From a virus (taxonomy: Duplodnaviria; Heunggongvirae; Uroviricota; Caudoviricetes), in the IMG/VR virus record IMGVR_UViG_3300023312_000117, positions 1-6,398 of that record: a DNA stretch of 6,398 bases; one strand, written 5' to 3'. The notes beneath the pieces were generated by a model. It did not search any database. It was not told the origin of the DNA and worked only from the letters and a program-made list of their open reading frames with translations. Positions 1 to 6,398 of the stretch are shown one piece after another. The first letter of the stretch is position 1. Every line of letters begins with the position of its first letter. Position numbers and translations under genes: made by a program.

Positions 1-177
1 ACGCTGACGCATCTGCATGTCAGTAATTGCCGCGTTCGCCAGCTTCAGTTCTCTGGCATTTTTGTCGCGCTGGGCTTTGTAGGTAATGGCGTTATCACGG
101 TAATGATTAACCGCCCATGACAGACAGACGATGATGCAGATAACCAGAGCGGAGATAATCGCGGTTAATCTGTTCAT
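1..177 (-). CDS. Rz: Rz i-spanin (inner-membrane spanin subunit); only the N-terminal 59 codons are in the window, the 3' end runs off the window start
   Basis: Minus-strand ATG at 177-175 overlaps the R stop (ATGA). Translation [59 protein letters not shown] is near-identical to lambda Rz as recalled, with a hydrophobic N-terminal anchor. The embedded Rz1 would lie beyond the window start. Confidence 0.82.
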
Positions 178-650
178 ACCTCAATCTCTCTGACCATTCC
201 GCCCGCTTCTTTGAATTTTGCAATCAGGCTGTCAGCCTTATGCTCGAACTGACCATAACCAGCGCCCGGAAGTGAAGCCCAGATATTGCTGCAACGGTCG
301 ATAGCCTGACGAATATCACCGCGATCAATCATCGGTAAAGCGCCACGCTCTTTAATCTGTTGCAGTGCCACAGCGTCCTGGCTTTTCGGAGAGAAGTCTT
401 TCAGGCCAAGCTGCTTGCGGTAAGCAACCCACCAGCGTGAAAGAAGTTGATAACGGCCTGCAGCTGTTGATTTGAGTTTCGGGTTTAGCGTGACAAGTTT
501 GCGAGGGTGATCGGAGTAATCAGTGAAGAGTTCTCCACCGACAATAACGTCATAACCGTGGTTACGTGTCGGTTGTCGCCCGTTATCCGTTCCCTCTGAC
601 CATGCCACCATATCAAGGAAAGCTTTACGCTGGGAATTTAGTACCTGCAT
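174..650 (-). CDS. R: Endolysin R, lambda-type lytic transglycosylase (158 aa)
   Basis: ORF 174..650(-) translates to [51 protein letters not shown]..., near-identical to lambda R as recalled, including the catalytic Glu in the WSEGTD motif. ATG at 650-648 is preceded by AAGGAG with a 6-nt spacer. Sits between holin and Rz. Confidence 0.9.
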
Positions 651-653
651 AAA

Positions 654-980
654 TTACTCCTTAGAGCCACCAAACTTGTTACCGATTACTCTCATTGCAG
701 CCCCACGAATAGCATCAACACCGATCAGCCCCACCCCACCACCAATGGCAACAGATAGTGATTTAGGCCATCCGACATACTCAAGAGCGGATGCAAAAGT
801 CAGCGTCAGAGCGCCACAGAGTAGAATTTCGAGTGTTTTTCGCTTCCAGCCGCCACCACCGCCAAAATAGGCAATACGTAAACCAGCCATAACAATCGAC
901 ATAATCACTGCGCCCAGCGGTGTGTCTCCACGCCACCAGCTCTGGACCAACTCCAGCCATGTATTTGGGTTATGAGGCAT
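654..980 (-). CDS. Putative holin (108 aa, about three predicted transmembrane segments, Gly-rich loops); not a lambda S homolog
   Basis: ORF immediately upstream of R on the same strand, with its TAA stop (656-654) inside the R Shine-Dalgarno. Three hydrophobic stretches (LGAVIMSIVMAGLRIAYF, LEILLCGALTLTFASALEYVGW, LSVAIGGGVGLIGVDAI) and a charged C-terminus fit a class I holin topology. Function is inferred from position and hydropathy only. Confidence 0.55.
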   Translation of the reverse strand: MPHNPNTWLELVQSWWRGDTPLGAVIMSIVMAGLRIAYFGGGGGWKRKTLEILLCGALTLTFASALEYVGWPKSLSVAIGGGVGLIGVDAIRGAAMRVIGNKFGGSKE

Positions 981-1120
981 TTGTAGTTATCTCTCACCTC
1001 GCTGATACAGCAGGTGCAAATTGAGGAAACATCATGTACCGCAAATCAGAAGCGGAAACGTCAAAGAAGCCGAGTCAATGGATAACTGCGGGATAGGCTA
1101 GGACCAAGGAATCCCCAGAC

Positions 1121-1154
1121 CCAGAAACGACAAAACCCGCTCGATGGCGGGTTT
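1121..1154 (-). terminator. Candidate intrinsic terminator on the minus strand (possible tR'-like late terminator)
   Basis: Perfect 8-bp inverted repeat AAACCCGC (1133-1140) / GCGGGTTT (1147-1154) with a 6-nt loop. On the minus strand the hairpin is followed by TTTTGTCGTTTC. On the plus strand the trailing sequence is not T-rich, so it is mainly unidirectional. Confidence 0.4.
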
Positions 1155-1199
1155 AAGCTGTGTGGCGAAGTGAGCACACTTAACAGATTACGATATTTT

Positions 1200-1259
1200 T
1201 TGCGTACGCGTTAGTGTTTTGATAGAATTTTCAGCCACATAAAAATTCATTCTTATAAT
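1200..1259 (+). promoter_or_regulatory. Putative sigma70-type promoter region for the plus-strand two-gene operon
   Basis: Candidate hexamers: TTGCGT (1200-1205), 17 bp, TAGAAT (1223-1228); also TTGATA (1219-1224) and a consensus TATAAT (1254-1259) 12 nt before the ATG. A weak SD-like GGGA (1262-1265) lies 6 nt before ATG 1272. Which hexamers are used cannot be decided from sequence. Confidence 0.25.
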
Positions 1260-1271
1260 TCGGGATATATA

Positions 1272-2447
1272 ATGGATATAACTTGTTTAGAATGTGGCAA
1301 TGTTCTTGACGACCCAACTGTAGCTTGCGATAAATGCGGTGCCACGCCTCATGTTGTAGTGCTGGGCAAACAATCGTACTTTCCTATTGGTGCTGTAACA
1401 GCAAATCTTGAAAAAAATGATTCAAGAGCATTTGATTATCGATTAGGTGAAGTTTGGGATCTAAAAAATGAAGTCACATCTGAATTCATAACCAGAATTG
1501 AGAAAAAATTTAGCCGAAAAAACAAATTTCATAACTTCCTAGACTCAGATCACAACCCTTCATCCATTCCTACGATCCTAAAAAAATACATTAATAAGAA
1601 TAATGAATTCATTGATTTATCTAGAGCTATAATAGAGAAGCTTAAACATAATGCTAATAACGAATCGAGAGTTGCCCAACTTCAGGGGGGGAGCGTTGTT
1701 TTCATCCACTATAAGTCTACCGAACCAGAGGATTTGGGGAAACTTCTAATCGTAATGGTTGATAAACAAAGCGCCTATGACTTTGATTCGGATAAGTTGA
1801 CCCCAACAAGATTAAATCCAATTAATACCGATGCCTTACGGCAGGCTGCGATGTTCGATTTAACTTTATTCGAAGCCAGTTATCCAGAAAACAAGGGTGA
1901 CTCATATGTACATTTCTTGCAAGGTAAATCTAAAAGCGATTTTTTCAAAGACTCATTAGGTTGCCGACATGATTCGGACAATAAAAGAAGCATTCAGCAA
2001 TTATTCAGTGCTATAGATATTTTTGCTAGTAAAAACTCACTCGGTCGTGTACTGCGTGATACTATTGACAATGAAGTTAAATCCTTACTGGAAAAAAAAT
2101 CAAAAGATAAACACGGAAATAAGTCCGTTAAGATAGAGGATATTTCAAAAATAATTGACTCATGCCTGACTGATTCACACAAATGTAAGGGAACGTTTGT
2201 CGATTTTGTTAATCTTAATGGTTTCCAGATTGACCCTCAATTTGAACCAACTCCTAAAGCAGCTGAAAGCGCGCTTACAATTGAAGTGGCAGATAACGAC
2301 AATAATTTTAAGTTGAAAATAATGCGTGGAGCTATTGGAGACGAAAAGTCAAATAAGCCTGTAATTCTCACTGACAACAAATGCGAAATTGTGATAAAAT
2401 TGAGTCAGGCAAATTATGATGAACTCAAAAGATATAGAGACAGCTAA
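1272..2447 (+). CDS. Gene A: zinc-ribbon plus NA37-family (YejK/NdpA-like nucleoid-associated protein) domain protein, 391 aa
   Basis: ATG start, long ORF in AT-rich DNA. N-terminus has a Cys4 zinc-ribbon pattern, CLECG...CDKCG (Cys 5, 8, 19, 22). The central region GGSVVFIHYKS...LLIVMVD...NPINTDALRQAAMFDLTLFE...YVHFLQGKSKSDFFKDSLG aligns by eye with E. coli YejK as recalled (GGFVLFCHYRY...LLVAVLS...HADIVARIDLTEWE...[22 protein letters not shown]). Confidence 0.75.
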   Translation: MDITCLECGNVLDDPTVACDKCGATPHVVVLGKQSYFPIGAVTANLEKNDSRAFDYRLGEVWDLKNEVTSEFITRIEKKFSRKNKFHNFLDSDHNPSSIPTILKKYINKNNEFIDLSRAIIEKLKHNANNESRVAQLQGGSVVFIHYKSTEPEDLGKLLIVMVDKQSAYDFDSDKLTPTRLNPINTDALRQAAMFDLTLFEASYPENKGDSYVHFLQGKSKSDFFKDSLGCRHDSDNKRSIQQLFSAIDIFASKNSLGRVLRDTIDNEVKSLLEKKSKDKHGNKSVKIEDISKIIDSCLTDSHKCKGTFVDFVNLNGFQIDPQFEPTPKAAESALTIEVADNDNNFKLKIMRGAIGDEKSNKPVILTDNKCEIVIKLSQANYDELKRYRDS

Positions 2448-2449
2448 TA

Positions 2450-3664
2450 ATGACAATTGCTGATGACTTATCAAGATTAGCGCAGATTATTAACGGAGCC
2501 TCAAGCAGAGTTGAGGGCTACTACACTGTCATAAGTCTTGAAGAAAGCATTGTTATTGTAAATAGTTCTGAAATAATTAGACTGTTACAATCTATAGGTT
2601 ATAAAAAGGCAACAACCTGCATCGAAAATAATGAAATTTGGCTAGATCGCCAAGCTTCATCTTGGGATGATGCTATAATTTATGAGAATGTTGAGTCTTT
2701 TTGGTCTAGAGTAAACACCCAAAACGCTCTTCCGAAAAATTATATCATCGGAACGCCGTTAATACTCCCTACTTCTAAGAATGAAAGCATCGAAAAAATC
2801 CATATTTTCTTTATGTGGAAAGATATCCTTTCATTAATTGCTGATCATCATAACAGTGACTGCTCTGTCTTATTTTTCACCAATGAAGACAAAAGTTATA
2901 CAGTCGAACTCACGCATTTTTTACAATATAGCGAGATTAATCGCTTATCGAACTCGTCTCTTAAATATGAAATTATAAAGGAGCTTCTCGACACAATAAA
3001 AATCAATGATTTACACAAAAGCGAGCGCAAGCTCGTTATACGCTCAGCCATAAACGAAGTATTTAAAGCAAATGGTACGTTCAATTTCTTTGACTTGCTT
3101 AACTCTACTGAACTCGTCAGGAAAAAATATGATGAACTATATGAGATTTACACAAAGAGGTTTTCTGTAAATAAAATTCTTAACGAACTCGATGAGAAAA
3201 ATCTTGAGTTCACGAGTAAAATTAACGAATTCATATCATCTAATCAGACAAAAGCATTGACTATTCCCGGTGCATTAATAGCAGCTGGTGGCTTAGTGAA
3301 GGCTAATGAAACAACCGAAGCAATATTGATTATCGCAGGACTTTGGATGATAAAAAAAGTCAATTACATTTCTATTGAGATATTCAATGAAACATTCGAC
3401 AACTTACGTTCTCGAGTGGAGTCCGCTTTCGATAAGTATTTAAAGTTTGAAGAAAATAAAGAAATCAAAGATAATGCAGATAGTATTAAGAGTAGCATTA
3501 CAGGTTTGATTGATAAAGCTAAAAAAAGGATGAGAACTGTTAAATATCTCGCATCAGCCATGTTTTATGGAGGCCTTATTTACGTTGGATATAAACAGTT
3601 CCCAGTCTTTTTTGAAAAATCGGCAGTAAATCTATTTTATTTTTTATGCCATACTATAAGCTAA
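2450..3664 (+). CDS. Gene B: uncharacterised 404-aa protein with C-terminal hydrophobic (putative membrane-associating) segments; candidate effector partner of gene A
   Basis: ATG at 2450 lies 2 nt after the gene A stop (TAATAATG), implying an operon. Same AT-rich composition. Hydrophobic stretches near the C-terminus: ALTIPGALIAAGGLV, AILIIAGLWMI and YLASAMFYGGLIYVGY. No catalytic motif recognised. The 3' end overlaps the 3' end of Q convergently by 21 bp. Confidence 0.7.
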   Translation: MTIADDLSRLAQIINGASSRVEGYYTVISLEESIVIVNSSEIIRLLQSIGYKKATTCIENNEIWLDRQASSWDDAIIYENVESFWSRVNTQNALPKNYIIGTPLILPTSKNESIEKIHIFFMWKDILSLIADHHNSDCSVLFFTNEDKSYTVELTHFLQYSEINRLSNSSLKYEIIKELLDTIKINDLHKSERKLVIRSAINEVFKANGTFNFFDLLNSTELVRKKYDELYEIYTKRFSVNKILNELDEKNLEFTSKINEFISSNQTKALTIPGALIAAGGLVKANETTEAILIIAGLWMIKKVNYISIEIFNETFDNLRSRVESAFDKYLKFEENKEIKDNADSIKSSITGLIDKAKKRMRTVKYLASAMFYGGLIYVGYKQFPVFFEKSAVNLFYFLCHTIS

Positions 3665-4000
3665 CATTGCTAAACAGCCGTCAACAAACCCCATTGCAGT
3701 TTGCAGTTCCTTCCTAATTGTGCCATCAGAGCATTTTCTCTTCTTCGCAATAGTGCGTAATGAGATACCGATAACAAAGTGGGCGATGATGAGCTCATAT
3801 TCCTCTGGTTTATACCTTCTCAACCGAGCCACACAACTGTCTATCATGATGCCTTCGTCATCATCACACTGAATCCGTGACTTTTTGCCATGAGGTAAAA
3901 GTCCCTTGAAACCAGCCGCTATCGGCTGCCAGTCCACTCCGCTATTGTCTGAAGCAGCCCAAGCTCCCCAACGATCCATTACTTCATACATATCACGCAT
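3644..4000 (-). CDS. quuD: Late-gene antiterminator Q-like protein (QuuD/phage 82-type Q family), 118 aa from ATG 4000
   Basis: Translation MRDMYEVMDRWGAWAASDNSGVDWQPIAAGFKGLLPHGKKSRIQCDDDEG...CSDGTIRKELQTAMGFVDG matches the DLP12 QuuD-type Q pattern as recalled. ATG 4000-3998 has GGAG 7 nt upstream; the longer TTG start at 4054 in the ORF track is less likely. Lies between rusA/ylcG and the lysis genes, the expected Q position. Confidence 0.78.
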   Translation of the reverse strand: MRDMYEVMDRWGAWAASDNSGVDWQPIAAGFKGLLPHGKKSRIQCDDDEGIMIDSCVARLRRYKPEEYELIIAHFVIGISLRTIAKKRKCSDGTIRKELQTAMGFVDGCLAMLAYSMA

Positions 4001-4084
4001 CAACTTTCTCCACAAAATCAGGCCAGAACGCCAATTACAAGCAAAAATCAACAAAACAGTATTAGTTGATTGTTATCTCTGACT

Positions 4085-4225
4085 TCATACTCCTGCTCCT
4101 GTCAGGGTTTTGGCGTAATTCTTCAGTATTCGGTAATCGGTCAAAACAGAACCGGGGAAACGATATAAGCGCAGACGCCCCCAGCGGTGGCGAAGAAATT
4201 CTGCCATATTAAACTCAAACATCAT
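4085..4225 (-). CDS. ylcG: YlcG-like small protein (46 aa, DUF3950 family)
   Basis: Hand translation of the minus strand gives [49 protein letters not shown] at 4225-4223 overlaps the rusA stop (ATGA). Not in the ORF track, presumably below its length cutoff. Matches the DLP12 gene order rusA-ylcG-quuD. Confidence 0.6.
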
Positions 4226-4584
4226 TCATTCCCCATTTCGGTGATGGTCAGTTCCAGCCTCCCACCTTTGGTAACAGGCATCTTCACAACGCGGTAATCA
4301 ACGACCTGAGCATCATCCAGCCAGAAACCTGCTTTAGTGAGTGCGTCAAAAGCGGCTTTTTGCAGATTATCCAGGTCACGGCGACGGCGATCCGGCATGT
4401 GGCACTCAATGCGGATTTTCACAGGCATAGCTAGGCCGATATCCAGCATTGCGTTTTTAATGATTCGGGCGACGTTATCGCGGTATGCCTGCCCCTCTGC
4501 GCTGACGTGCGTGCGCCCGCGATTATGGCGGTAATAGCGATTATTGCTCGGAGGCCAGGGTAATGTGATGCTGTAGGTATTCAC
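4222..4584 (-). CDS. rusA: RusA Holliday-junction resolvase (120 aa)
   Basis: Translation [120 protein letters not shown] matches E. coli K-12 DLP12 RusA as recalled. GTG start at 4584 overlaps the ybcO stop. Confidence 0.92.
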
Positions 4585-5489: not shown

Positions 5490-5685
5490 GCTTCACCTCC
5501 GCAGAGGTCAAACGCTGGATGCAAAAAATCGCAGGTGCATCTCTGCATCTGTGAAGGGAGAAGAGAGTTTGGATTGTATGTGCGCATAAACGTCCCCGTT
5601 TAGCGCAGAAGTCACCGGAGTTGTTCAGGCTCCGATGACATGATTATGGCAAAATGATTATGTAAAATCAAAAGCCAAAAAACAA

Positions 5686-6375
5686 TTATGGTTTATTTTC
5701 TAGCTCTGATTTTTTGAAAGCTTCTATCAGACGATTAGCATCTTCTGTACCACCAGGAAGCACGTTTGATTTTTTAAGAATATACGGTGGGAACTTTGTG
5801 GTTAAATATTCATGCTTAAACCATCTACGAAACTCTGACAATGCAGAATCAGGATAGGCATTAATGATCTGAGGATTGGAACTTGCCTGAAGAAAATCTT
5901 CAGGGTAATAATGCTCACAGTCTACTCTTTCTCCAAATTCTGTTGCTAACCCCTTTGCTTTCCAGTGACGCGCCCAGCAAGAACCAACACTGCCATCAGG
6001 TACGGTATGCTGATTAATCGCTAATCCAGCATTGATGAGATCTACCATCATACCTGCAATTTCATTAAATATAATGAAATACCCATCAGGTATGGTTCCC
6101 TTATCTTTTAATAAAGATACTCTGTCATGGTAATGCCTCCACGGGTCCTCCGGTTGATATTTTAGCGCCTCGTATATAAATGTCTTGAGGCCTTTTTTAG
6201 CAAGCTCTCTGTAAGATCTAATTGCAGTCTCACTTTCTGCTTGTTTTGCTTCAAAGGCATAGTATTCAAGTATAGCCATGCATACAACATCTGGATAAGC
6301 ATGGTACTCAACACCATTTCGAATTATTGGTATATAAAGTTTTTCATTAGACTGGCCCCCTGAATCTCCAGACAA
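5686..6375 (-). CDS. Uncharacterised AT-rich ORF (229 codons if started at TTG 6375); family not recognised
   Basis: Long minus-strand ORF upstream of ninB with GC visibly lower than the nin genes (spot counts ~27-40% on 60-nt lines). The ORF opens at TTG (6375-6373) directly after an in-frame TGA; the first in-frame ATG is at codon 33 (6279) and has no obvious SD. The start codon is therefore uncertain. Confidence 0.5.
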   Translation of the reverse strand: MSGDSGGQSNEKLYIPIIRNGVEYHAYPDVVCMAILEYYAFEAKQAESETAIRSYRELAKKGLKTFIYEALKYQPEDPWRHYHDRVSLLKDKGTIPDGYFIIFNEIAGMMVDLINAGLAINQHTVPDGSVGSCWARHWKAKGLATEFGERVDCEHYYPEDFLQASSNPQIINAYPDSALSEFRRWFKHEYLTTKFPPYILKKSNVLPGGTEDANRLIEAFKKSELENKP

Positions 6376-6380
6376 CCAAT

Positions 6381-6398
6381 ATCACTTAAATAAGTGAT
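6381..6398. promoter_or_regulatory. 18-bp perfect palindrome ATCACTTA-AA-TAAGTGAT; candidate operator or protein-binding site at the window edge
   Basis: Positions 6381-6398 read ATCACTTAAATAAGTGAT, identical to its reverse complement. It lies immediately 5' of the start of the 229-codon ORF. The ATCAC half-site resembles lambdoid repressor operator half-sites. Truncated by the window end, so context is unknown. Confidence 0.3.

Follow-up and report, generated by a model that had tools for sequence, protein, structure and literature searches.

Between the antiterminator gene Q and their lysis genes, lambdoid phages carry cargo genes (morons); stx in Stx phages, nmpC in DLP12 and lc in PA-2 are examples. 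In phage lambda, paQ, a dedicated CII-activated antisense promoter inside Q, acts as a brake on late-gene expression. Defence hotspots have been described for P2 and P4 (PMC9122126) and other hotspots are also on record; our literature search returned nothing specific to a defence hotspot between Q and the lysis genes. Among defence systems, DS-1 is a DefensePredictor system (Science 2026, PMC13092281), and the cloned system was reported to protect against phage infection. The supplement of that paper enters the proteins WP_000355468.1 and WP_000150292.1 as DS-1 (working id D390), and its main text mentions neither an antiterminator nor a holin; we found in the paper no account of the prophage position or the overlap with Q. 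Among antiterminators, the 162-residue Q21 has been solved, and the last six residues of its C-terminus become ordered and touch RNA polymerase at the α/β interface (10.1101/651190). In the standard Q21 cassette, pR' directly adjoins the Q gene. The same preprint assigns Pfam family PF06530 to the Q21/Q933W family and gives it again for Q82, apparently an error.

We compared these systems with an E. coli lambdoid prophage in which a DS-1 operon runs tail-to-tail into Q. The window, the whole stretch of DNA that was analysed, has 6,398 nucleotides, and positions 900-4300 are 100% identical to a RefSeq-annotated locus (L001).

Architecture of the locus

The features between the lysis genes and Q are as follows.

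174..650, minus strand: endolysin R (open reading frame; glycoside hydrolase family 24 in RefSeq on L001)
654..980, minus strand: lambda-family holin S (Pfam PF05106, E = 5.7e-25)
1133..1154, minus strand: intrinsic-terminator-like hairpin with T tract from the terminator scan, candidate tR' of the late operon
1165..1226, minus strand: conserved block bounding the cargo on the lysis side, candidate pR'/QBE region
1272..2447, plus strand: DS-1 gene A, zinc-ribbon and YejK/NA37-like 'nucleoid-associated anti-phage protein' (WP_000355468.1)
2450..3664, plus strand: DS-1 gene B, 'anti-phage protein' of 404 aa (WP_000150292.1)
3644..3664, no strand: 21-bp tail-to-tail overlap; on the plus strand, gene B codons 399-405 (L C H T I S stop)
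3644..3664, minus strand: the same overlap as Q codons 113-119 (L A Y S M A stop)
3662..3689, minus strand: junction zone, Q codons 104-113, with the L077 breakpoint, the end of homology and the GC switch
3644..4000, minus strand: antiterminator Q of the Q21 family, 118 aa from ATG (Pfam PF06530, E = 2.7e-47)

The convergent 21-bp overlap between gene B and Q, which a sequence-only reading had pointed out, is confirmed by the open reading frame coordinates of the window (3644-3664) and by RefSeq, which annotates the identical two coding sequences on L001 (5551-6765, plus; 6745-7101, minus) with the same overlap. The overlap is more than a chance feature: in about 60 distinct Q/cargo pairs surveyed, the gap is usually +12 to +48 bp; several other cargo pairs overlap by 4-12 bp, and overlaps of 21-33 bp occur only in the DS-1 clade, consistently. 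The two frames are codon-aligned antisense. The TAA at 3662-3664 is the stop of gene B and, on the opposite strand, the TTA codon of Q Leu113; the TAA at 3644-3646 is the stop of Q and, on the opposite strand, the TTA codon of gene B Leu399. The same reading had described an AT-rich Q end on a Q body of normal GC content, and this agrees with the measured values: GC is 28.6% in the overlap and 46.3% in the Q body (3681-4000), with the switch at about 3660-3675. The cargo (1221-3643) has a GC content of 34.7% and so differs in composition from the phage backbone (46-50%).

On the lysis side, endolysin R, one of the conserved backbone genes for lysis to the left of the hotspot, gave no Pfam match at E ≤ 0.01. 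Holin S forms the conserved left border of the hotspot, and the identical accession (WP_001120496.1) flanks differing cargo in three other loci (L006, L007 and L009).

Both cargo genes matched NCBIfam equivalogs of DS-1, gene A to NF053868 (DS1_1; E = 2.1e-135, 451.4 bits, cutoff 330) and gene B to NF053869 (DS1_2; E = 2.8e-112, 375.2 bits, cutoff 315). Gene A also matched Pfam NA37 (E = 1.2e-23), and the two genes are co-directional on the plus strand with 2 bp between them. PADLOC (2023) reported nothing for either gene, and NCBIfam (2026) identified both. Since both scores exceed their cutoffs and both accessions match the published and validated system (PMC13092281), the AT-rich insert is assigned as the two-gene DS-1, its proteins showing no difference from those published. 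The C-terminal ...FYFLCHTIS of gene B is conserved among homologues; creation of the CHTIS end by the junction was therefore rejected. We accept the three-residue extension KHC of 407-aa gene B variants as a junction product, antisense to LAM(L/F) of Q. The existing annotation of a 118-aa Q and of overlapping coding sequences is correct, and DS-1 is the name to attach to the AT-rich insert.

Comparison of the antiterminator with Q21

By its match to PF06530 (160 bits, cutoff 26, residues 1-115 of 118), Q is classified as a Q21-family antiterminator. An alternative upstream TTG at 4054, which would give a Q of 136 aa (3644..4054), was rejected as the start; all homologues and RefSeq begin with MRDMYE. 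Q shares with the Q21 family the full-length Pfam match, the sigma region 4-like core and the location, with nin/rusA genes on one side and lysis genes on the other. Against the solved Q21 (6P18 and 6JNX), however, the match is weak (E = 1.3e-3) and limited to residues 8-86, and Q is 44 residues shorter. Unlike in the standard Q21 cassette, the probable promoter lies 0.6-3.7 kb from Q, across the cargo. In the AlphaFold2 model the C-terminal tail of Q merely extends the last helix (residues 92-117), which is predicted as a confident helix. Because the last six residues of Q21 contact RNA polymerase, a C-terminal extension of Q cannot be taken as neutral automatically.

A cargo hotspot between Q and the lysis genes

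Differing opposite-strand cargo lies between Q and the lysis side in nine related phages and prophages, and more than 25 distinct cargo types lie between Q and a conserved 18-mer or the holin gene. The 18-mer, TTTTTGCGTACGCGTTAG, occupies 1197-1214 of the plus strand within the conserved block at 1165..1226. This block of about 60 bp is kept in five E. coli prophages with different cargo and also in other genera, in DS-1 loci whose lysis cassettes differ. With up to three mismatches allowed, about 120 of 129 loci have the 18-mer at a distance of 600-3750 bp downstream of Q. A search for an empty site, with Q followed directly by the block, found none, the minimum distance being 600 bp. At the place equivalent to the hairpin at 1133..1154, the DS-1 loci of other genera also have a hairpin, of different sequence. 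Block and terminator hairpin are present beyond the cargo in nearly all loci.

From this conservation we infer that the block would be the Q target site together with the late promoter region (pR'/QBE), and the probable late promoter likely lies beyond the cargo, just upstream of the holin gene. A consensus scan of the minus strand at 1155-1271 found no convincing sigma-70 promoter, and visual inspection located no pR' there either.

The hotspot resembles the lambdoid moron sites and the P2 and P4 hotspots in its variable, AT-rich accessory genes, its conserved flanks and exchange by recombination in the flanks. It differs from them in two respects. First, the coding end of Q contains one of the boundaries, and each cargo type brings its own Q C-terminus. 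Second, the cargo precedes the probable late promoter and is nearly always convergent on Q.

Mapping of the junction within Q

Among the surveyed loci, Q relatives adjoining other cargo are mostly 113-116 aa long with cargo-specific ends, compared with 118 aa here. A native Q end should recur, in residues and length, in Qs from prophages lacking the insert, and Qs beside other cargo differ in both. They agree with this Q through residue 113 (3662-3664), where protein homology stops, and diverge after it; since they match that far, only AYSMA (residues 114-118) is non-homologous on alignment. The tail quoted in the sequence-only reading, LAMLAYSMA, is thus divided: only AYSMA lies within the overlap, and LAML is ordinary Q sequence, GCLAML or GCLAMI being found also in Qs adjoining other cargo. 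Across the family the tail is hypervariable in both length and sequence, with Qs of 111-141 aa.

The proposed comparison with related prophages located a breakpoint. The Q of locus L077 equals that of the window over the first 319 nt, with one mismatch, and its cargo and Q end differ. Similarity decays from about 3681, which places a recombination breakpoint at about 3681-3689. Because L077 matches to about 3681 and then has different cargo and a different Q end, the breakpoint falls inside the last ~12 codons of Q. Three further loci (L073, L074 and L076) have other breakpoints within Q, and the block of DS-1 and Q recurs at 99.7% identity with a different upstream backbone. Among the 129 loci, each Q tail type pairs with one cargo type. 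These alignments show the Q end and the cargo being exchanged as a unit by phage-phage recombination, with breakpoints inside the conserved Q gene. The earlier proposal that recombination bringing in the operon replaced the C-terminal tail of Q therefore stands in part: the L077 comparison reveals a mosaic junction inside the C-terminal codons of Q. However, no insertion event of this prophage is involved, the same overlap being present in other genera, and the non-homologous residues number five rather than nine or ten.

Substitutions in the overlap

We compared synonymous and non-synonymous differences in the two frames of the overlap. There are 39 synonymous and 59 non-synonymous differences in the gene B frame, against 7 and 91 in the Q frame. 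The control region, which encodes gene B only, gave 174 and 173 in the gene B frame against 31 and 316 in the Q frame. In the part encoding only Q, 408 synonymous and 75 non-synonymous differences in the Q frame indicate purifying selection. Varied Q tails are found in the DS-1 lineages (AYSMA, TDSMT, AQCMA, AEGMTYVIQ and PLYLT), and the gene B ends stay CHTIS-like. Since substitutions in the overlap track the gene B frame and alter Q radically, the pattern shows a tail evolving like non-coding antisense, and we regard it as a tolerated passenger. Most DS-1 lineages keep a Q of 118 aa; constraint is one possible reason, and conservation of the gene B Leu399 codon accounts for the length as well.

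Origin of the overlap

The explanation that best joins these results is an old, inherited DS-1/Q junction at a cargo bay, in which a spacer was lost and the Q tail is a by-product; we give it a probability of about 80%. The cargo bay splits the Q21-family Q gene from its probable target, the late promoter and terminator, and is occupied here by DS-1, whose genes are read in the direction of Q. The DS-1 lineage would have lost the short spacer between Q and cargo, which elsewhere mostly holds both stop codons and a hairpin. Without the spacer, both genes extend by several codons into each other's antisense strand, each closing at a TAA that reads as a TTA leucine codon on the other strand. AYSMA, the five-residue addition to Q, would be dictated by the conserved C-terminus of gene B, just as the KHC of some gene B relatives would be dictated by LAM(L/F) of Q. 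In a lysogen, the DS-1 transcript, lacking a terminator, may enter Q antisense, and during lytic growth, the early transcript expressing Q may enter DS-1 antisense.

Most non-overlapping pairs of Q and cargo have a perfect hairpin of 6-16 bp within the gap, as found by a simple perfect-stem scan, and a fair number of such pairs have none. The gap hairpin of L077 folds with z = -3.9. By the same scan, no locus of the DS-1 clade has a hairpin of at least 5 bp near the junction, and 3600-3720 of the window folds no better than shuffled sequence (z of 0.05 and 0.69). Terminator scan, hairpin scan and fold test agree in finding no terminator after gene B. An Rfam scan of the whole window (E ≤ 1) returned two chance snoRNA-like matches and no known RNA element at the junction or the putative late leader. 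Promoter-like sites are present upstream of gene A (for example, 1219-1246), in a total number no higher than in shuffled sequence. Because no terminator separates gene B from Q, the transcriptional interference suggested by the sequence-only reading is plausible, and so is mutual antisense read-through between DS-1 and Q. With the cargo upstream of the probable pR', such interference would hit early, pR-driven transcription of Q and not the late transcript. It would resemble lambda paQ, since antisense across Q braking the late genes is what terminator-less convergence could produce here; unlike paQ, the antisense would be predicted read-through of a defence operon with no dedicated promoter inside Q.

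Such read-through could itself have been selected, with DS-1 antisense holding the Q/lysis switch off in the lysogen and induced transcription of Q silencing DS-1, so that self-targeting is avoided. The convergent genes without hairpin or terminator, unlike most other cargo types here, are in keeping with such a device, as are the persistence of the arrangement across 71-90% gene B identity and the recurrence of small overlaps without hairpins in several other cargo types. The overlap sequence, however, is conserved no further than gene B coding demands, and a neutral junction predicts equal persistence, because restoring the spacer needs a precise insertion. Since many neighbouring cargo types retain a hairpin, the hotspot does not in general require antisense coupling. 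We therefore consider selection for the overlap and the missing terminator unlikely.

A recent illegitimate insertion in this prophage, which cut the native end of Q and left a damaged and possibly non-functional protein in a decaying DLP12-like prophage, would account for a Q end unlike those beside other cargo and for an overlap with the AT-rich composition of the cargo. Neighbouring gene names (ybcK, ybcN, ybcO and nohD) recall the defective DLP12, and IS elements interrupt the region in some genomes. The distribution of the junction largely refutes this reading. DS-1 loci L010, L011/L012, L013/L014, L015 and L129 overlap by 21, 30 or 33 bp, colinearly and without indels, and all gene B relatives that we checked in the 71-90% identity range, drawn from five genera or metagenomes, share this colinear overlap with Q. 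Outside E. coli, the overlap is present in Citrobacter, Raoultella, Klebsiella and metagenomes, on different phage backbones. Since the same colinear overlap recurs at such divergence, a fresh insertion of this prophage is not its source. The body of Q is also under strong purifying selection in DS-1-linked lineages, the Pfam match spans nearly all of Q, and nothing native is missing, because homology to other Qs extends to residue 113. Recent insertion is thus very improbable. The same distribution shows an old tail-to-tail junction, inherited with DS-1 across genera as a module. In L040, a distant relative of DS-1, a hairpin lies in a gap of +20 bp, and this locus, together with the other cargo types, suggests an ancestral spacer with a hairpin.

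That the five extra residues are an adaptive change of Q function, such as an altered RNA polymerase contact, is the least probable reading of all: the polymerase contact of Q21, the length held in most DS-1 lineages and the confident helix of the model point towards it, but the residues differ radically from lineage to lineage (Y/D/Q/E/L and S/C/G/Y), the Q frame has as few synonymous changes (7 of 98) as non-coding antisense, family tails are hypervariable, and the complementary gene B codon fixes each tail residue.

Implications for lambdoid phages

The locus is a worked example of cargo swapping in lambdoid prophages by recombination in two flanks, the conserved Q gene and a conserved promoter-proximal block. 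With recombination inside the Q gene, each cargo type carries its own Q C-terminus, and the Q tail could thus quickly mark which cargo follows. The hotspot is also a convenient site to seek untested defence candidates. A wider proposal is that this Q subfamily has a built-in cargo bay separating Q from its own target promoter, and that in the DS-1 lineage loss of the hairpin makes DS-1 and Q mutually antisense, so that defence expression would keep Q silent in the lysogen and would itself be switched off on induction; we view it as doubtful, at the same low odds as selection for the overlap. If this antisense coupling is true, the expression of defence would be linked to the lysis-lysogeny switch.

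Gene layout and identity of the cargo

The phage genes of the window lie on the minus strand throughout (ORF calls, Pfam and RefSeq), in the order BstA-like, ybcN/NinB-like, ninE, ybcO, rusA, ylcG and then Q, the late-gene antiterminator. Two AT-rich genes on the opposite strand stand between Q and the holin gene S:

174–650, minus, endolysin
654–980, minus, holin S
1272–2447, plus, AT-rich gene A
2450–3664, plus, AT-rich gene B
3644–4000, minus, Q

The GC content of this cargo region is 34.7%, against 46–50% in the surrounding phage backbone, and about 106 of the 5,426 complete E. coli genomes searched carry the 3.4 kb segment 900–4300 at 99–100% identity. PADLOC (2023) did not recognize genes A and B. 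In an NCBIfam equivalog search, NF053868 [`nucleoid-associated anti-phage protein' (DS1_1)] and NF053869 [`anti-phage protein' (DS1_2)] both scored well above cutoff. On the matching E. coli locus L001, the cargo is annotated as WP_000355468.1 and WP_000150292.1, the accessions that the DefensePredictor supplement (PMC13092281) lists as system DS-1 (working id D390, marked replicated); the text of that paper describes the YejK nucleoid-associated domain as newly validated in defence. From these matches and shared accessions, the cargo is therefore DS-1, an already-known, validated defence system.

In two of the E. coli genomes the feature lists suggest that the region, otherwise identical, is interrupted: IS1 splits the nucleoid-associated gene in NZ_OZ547033.1, and an IS3-family element splits Q in NZ_CP097170.1. 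A second AT-rich cargo gene, at 5686–6375 on the minus strand within the AT-rich region 5600–6398, matches PADLOC BstA with an E-value of 7.9e-93, over profile positions 77–291 of 292 only, and has an in-frame stop directly upstream of its TTG start. At the corresponding position of L001, whose identity to the window is known for 900–4300, the RefSeq entry is a `BstA C-terminal domain-containing protein' of 309 aa.

The overlap and the C-terminus of Q

The convergent 21-bp overlap described in the sequence-only reading is real. Gene B runs to 3664 and Q to 3644, so that the terminal 21 bp are common to both on opposite strands, and RefSeq calls the same overlapping pair on the locus identical over 900–4300. 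The two frames are codon-aligned antisense: the gene B stop TAA is the TTA codon of Leu113 in Q, and the Q stop TAA is the TTA codon of Leu399 in gene B. The Q end is AT-rich as that reading had it, with 28.6% GC in the overlap against 46.3% in the Q body and a switch at about 3660–3675.

The match of Q (118 aa) to Pfam PF06530 spans practically the entire protein; its similarity to solved Q21 (6P18) is weak (E-value 1.3e-3, residues 8–86). The Q21 structure preprint (10.1101/651190) gives PF06530 as the Q21/Q933W family; it also gives PF06530 for the Q82 family, apparently in error. Q relatives of 71–95% identity were gathered from annotated phages, complete E. coli genomes, GTDB species genomes and IMG/VR, and the Q end and nearest convergent ORF were extracted at 129 loci. 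In this survey, Qs without DS-1 linkage are mostly 113–116 aa long; among the 120 closest protein clusters, DS-1-type Qs included, 93 are 113–116 aa and seven are 118 aa. Conservation runs through G104-F105, and the hydrophobic pattern is kept to residue 113. Beyond that residue each cargo type has its own Q ending, a pairing that holds across the 129 loci: for example, six loci combine VLRMV with a 179-aa neighbour, eight or more combine VVSILV with one of 204 aa, and more than a dozen combine VLSML with one of 182 aa. Since GCLAML and GCLAMI are also present in Qs adjoining other cargo, Q homology extends to residue 113, and AYSMA alone is foreign. DS-1-free Qs thus differ from the window Q at the C-terminus, and the proposal that the native tail was replaced withstands this comparison.

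Codon differences were counted in both frames among eight DS-1-linked lineages.

Synonymous/non-synonymous codon differences in each frame
Stretch; gene B frame; Q frame
Overlap codons; 39/59; 7/91
Gene-B-only stretch; 174/173; 31/316
Q-only stretch; 54/429; 408/75

By these counts, change in the overlap follows the coding constraints of gene B, and the Q tail behaves like non-coding antisense. The Q tails of DS-1-linked lineages read AYSMA, TDSMT, AQCMA, AEGMTYVIQ and PLYLT, and the gene B ends stay CHT(I/L/F)S-like. Selection on the Q body is strongly purifying (408 synonymous, 75 non-synonymous), and Q is therefore most likely functional in DS-1-linked phages. Residues 92–117 form one confident terminal helix in the AlphaFold2 model of Q (mean pLDDT 71.5), so the tail is predicted only to lengthen this helix. 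The extra residues thus appear to be a passenger of gene B, with the caveat that the last six residues of Q21 contact RNA polymerase (10.1101/651190); Q21 is 44 residues longer than the window Q, and the C-terminus of the latter is not alignable with it.

Recombination within Q and age of the junction

The Q of L077, an IMG/VR prophage, equals the window Q from upstream of the start through nucleotide 319, with one mismatch at window position 3689. Past this point there is codon-level resemblance over 3680–3662 and random sequence beyond; the L077 protein has 115 aa, ending GCISILFW. Its cargo is a different gene pair, with products of 160 and 273 aa; the holin that comes next is almost unchanged, with one difference in 108 aa. 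The identity, the divergence and the different cargo together place a recombination breakpoint between L077 and the window at about 3681–3689, within Q codons 104–107. Two DS-1-linked loci break elsewhere within Q: L073 is 86% identical over nucleotides 1–150 and 100% after, and L074 is 82–85% identical in the body and 97.5% in the tail and beyond. Six E. coli matches (H65–H70) carry the DS-1 and Q block at 99.7% identity on another upstream backbone, with the break near 4040. On the right of the cargo site, therefore, recombination takes place in Q itself; the left boundary of the site lies at about 1220.

Gene B relatives are found at 85–90% identity in Citrobacter, Raoultella and a metagenome, at 75% in a Logan assembly and at 71% in Klebsiella sp. 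Each of these adjoins a Q of 118 aa, or in a single case 122 aa, and overlaps it by 21, 30 or 33 bp. The surrounding phage backbones carry different holins and different early genes, and across the junction the loci align colinearly and without indels. The sole difference of the 407-aa gene B variants is AAA or AAG for TAA at codon 405; they end KHC-stop, the antisense of L-A-M-(L/F) in Q. The 404-aa variants, including the window, keep CAT TGC TAA after their stop (3665–3673 in the window), the frame-preserved remnant of that ending. One A/T difference at codon 405 thus interconverts 404-aa and 407-aa gene B and the 21-bp and 30-bp overlaps. More distant DS-1 relatives (41–42% identity) also occur near the same Q family, one of them (L040) with a +20 bp gap to Q. 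The suggestion of an insertion junction in the Q C-terminus therefore holds in substance, given the L077 breakpoint, but not as a local accident: the DS-1/Q junction is ancient and modular.

In Pectobacterium brasiliense (L133, 4243–4700) a 41% DS-1 relative lies beside a degraded, unannotated Q remnant and also near a D5_N primase gene. A 65% relative in a metagenome (L131) has a different context: its neighbours are AAA_15 and HNH genes, and a Q-family gene of 133 aa lies upstream and does not overlap its end.

For a prophage cargo hotspot, the DS-1/Q junction is nothing out of the ordinary.

Other cargo was seen at the same site. E. coli 50EVA (L007, 1746–3948) carries an NA37/YejK-like protein (344 aa) and a 392-aa partner, which are 25–28% identical to DS-1 A and B (pairwise E-values 3e-10 and 4e-7) and perhaps constitute a remote DS-1-like system; Q is followed there by a gap of normal type, 24 bp long and with a hairpin. 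The cargo of L080 (5433–8291) is a co-directional C5 cytosine methyltransferase and then two genes of 229 and 385 aa on the opposite strand, and that of L114 (2669–5851) is a single opposite-strand 1060-aa protein with an N-terminal metallophosphatase-like motif.

A proposed loss of the spacer hairpin

Most non-overlapping Q/cargo pairs have a perfect 6–16 bp hairpin exactly in the 12–48 bp gap between the stops (L077, 5349–5370; L006, about 3944–3962; also L007, L005, L003 and others). These hairpins are GC-rich, differ in sequence with each cargo type and are probably bidirectional terminators; those of L077 and L006 fold far better than shuffles (z about −3.9). Such a hairpin is absent from all overlapping pairs, every DS-1-clade locus included. 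On neither strand does window segment 3600–3720 fold better than its shuffled versions, and the terminator scan predicted none after gene B. In the simplest history, the ancestor of the DS-1 clade would have lost the spacer together with the hairpin and both stops, and each ORF would then have extended to the next antisense TTA. Transcriptional interference between gene B and Q is plausible, because there is no terminator between the genes.

A candidate late promoter beyond the cargo

A block of about 60 bp (about 1165–1226), followed on the minus strand by a terminator hairpin (1154–1133), is conserved beside all cargo types in E. coli. DS-1 loci from other genera, whose lysis genes are different, share the block as well; there the hairpin keeps its position but has another sequence. 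The core 18-mer of the block lies at:

1197–1214, Q sense CTAACGCGTACGCAAAAA, plus strand TTTTTGCGTACGCGTTAG

With up to three mismatches, it occurs downstream of Q in about 120 of the 129 loci, across many enterobacterial genera, against a calculated chance expectation of about 0.002 per locus. The distance from the Q stop is 600–3750 bp and never less, and no empty site, with the 18-mer close to Q and no cargo, was seen among the 129 loci. A promoter scan identified no consensus promoter in the block. We infer that this block probably serves as Q target and late promoter region, which would place the cargo between Q and its own promoter.

If the 18-mer is this target, the Q subfamily would always have cargo between Q and the promoter. 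With this placement, should it be correct, DS-1 is never traversed by late transcription and converges on the early transcript from which Q is expressed. The putative interference would then concern Q expression, and not the late operon.
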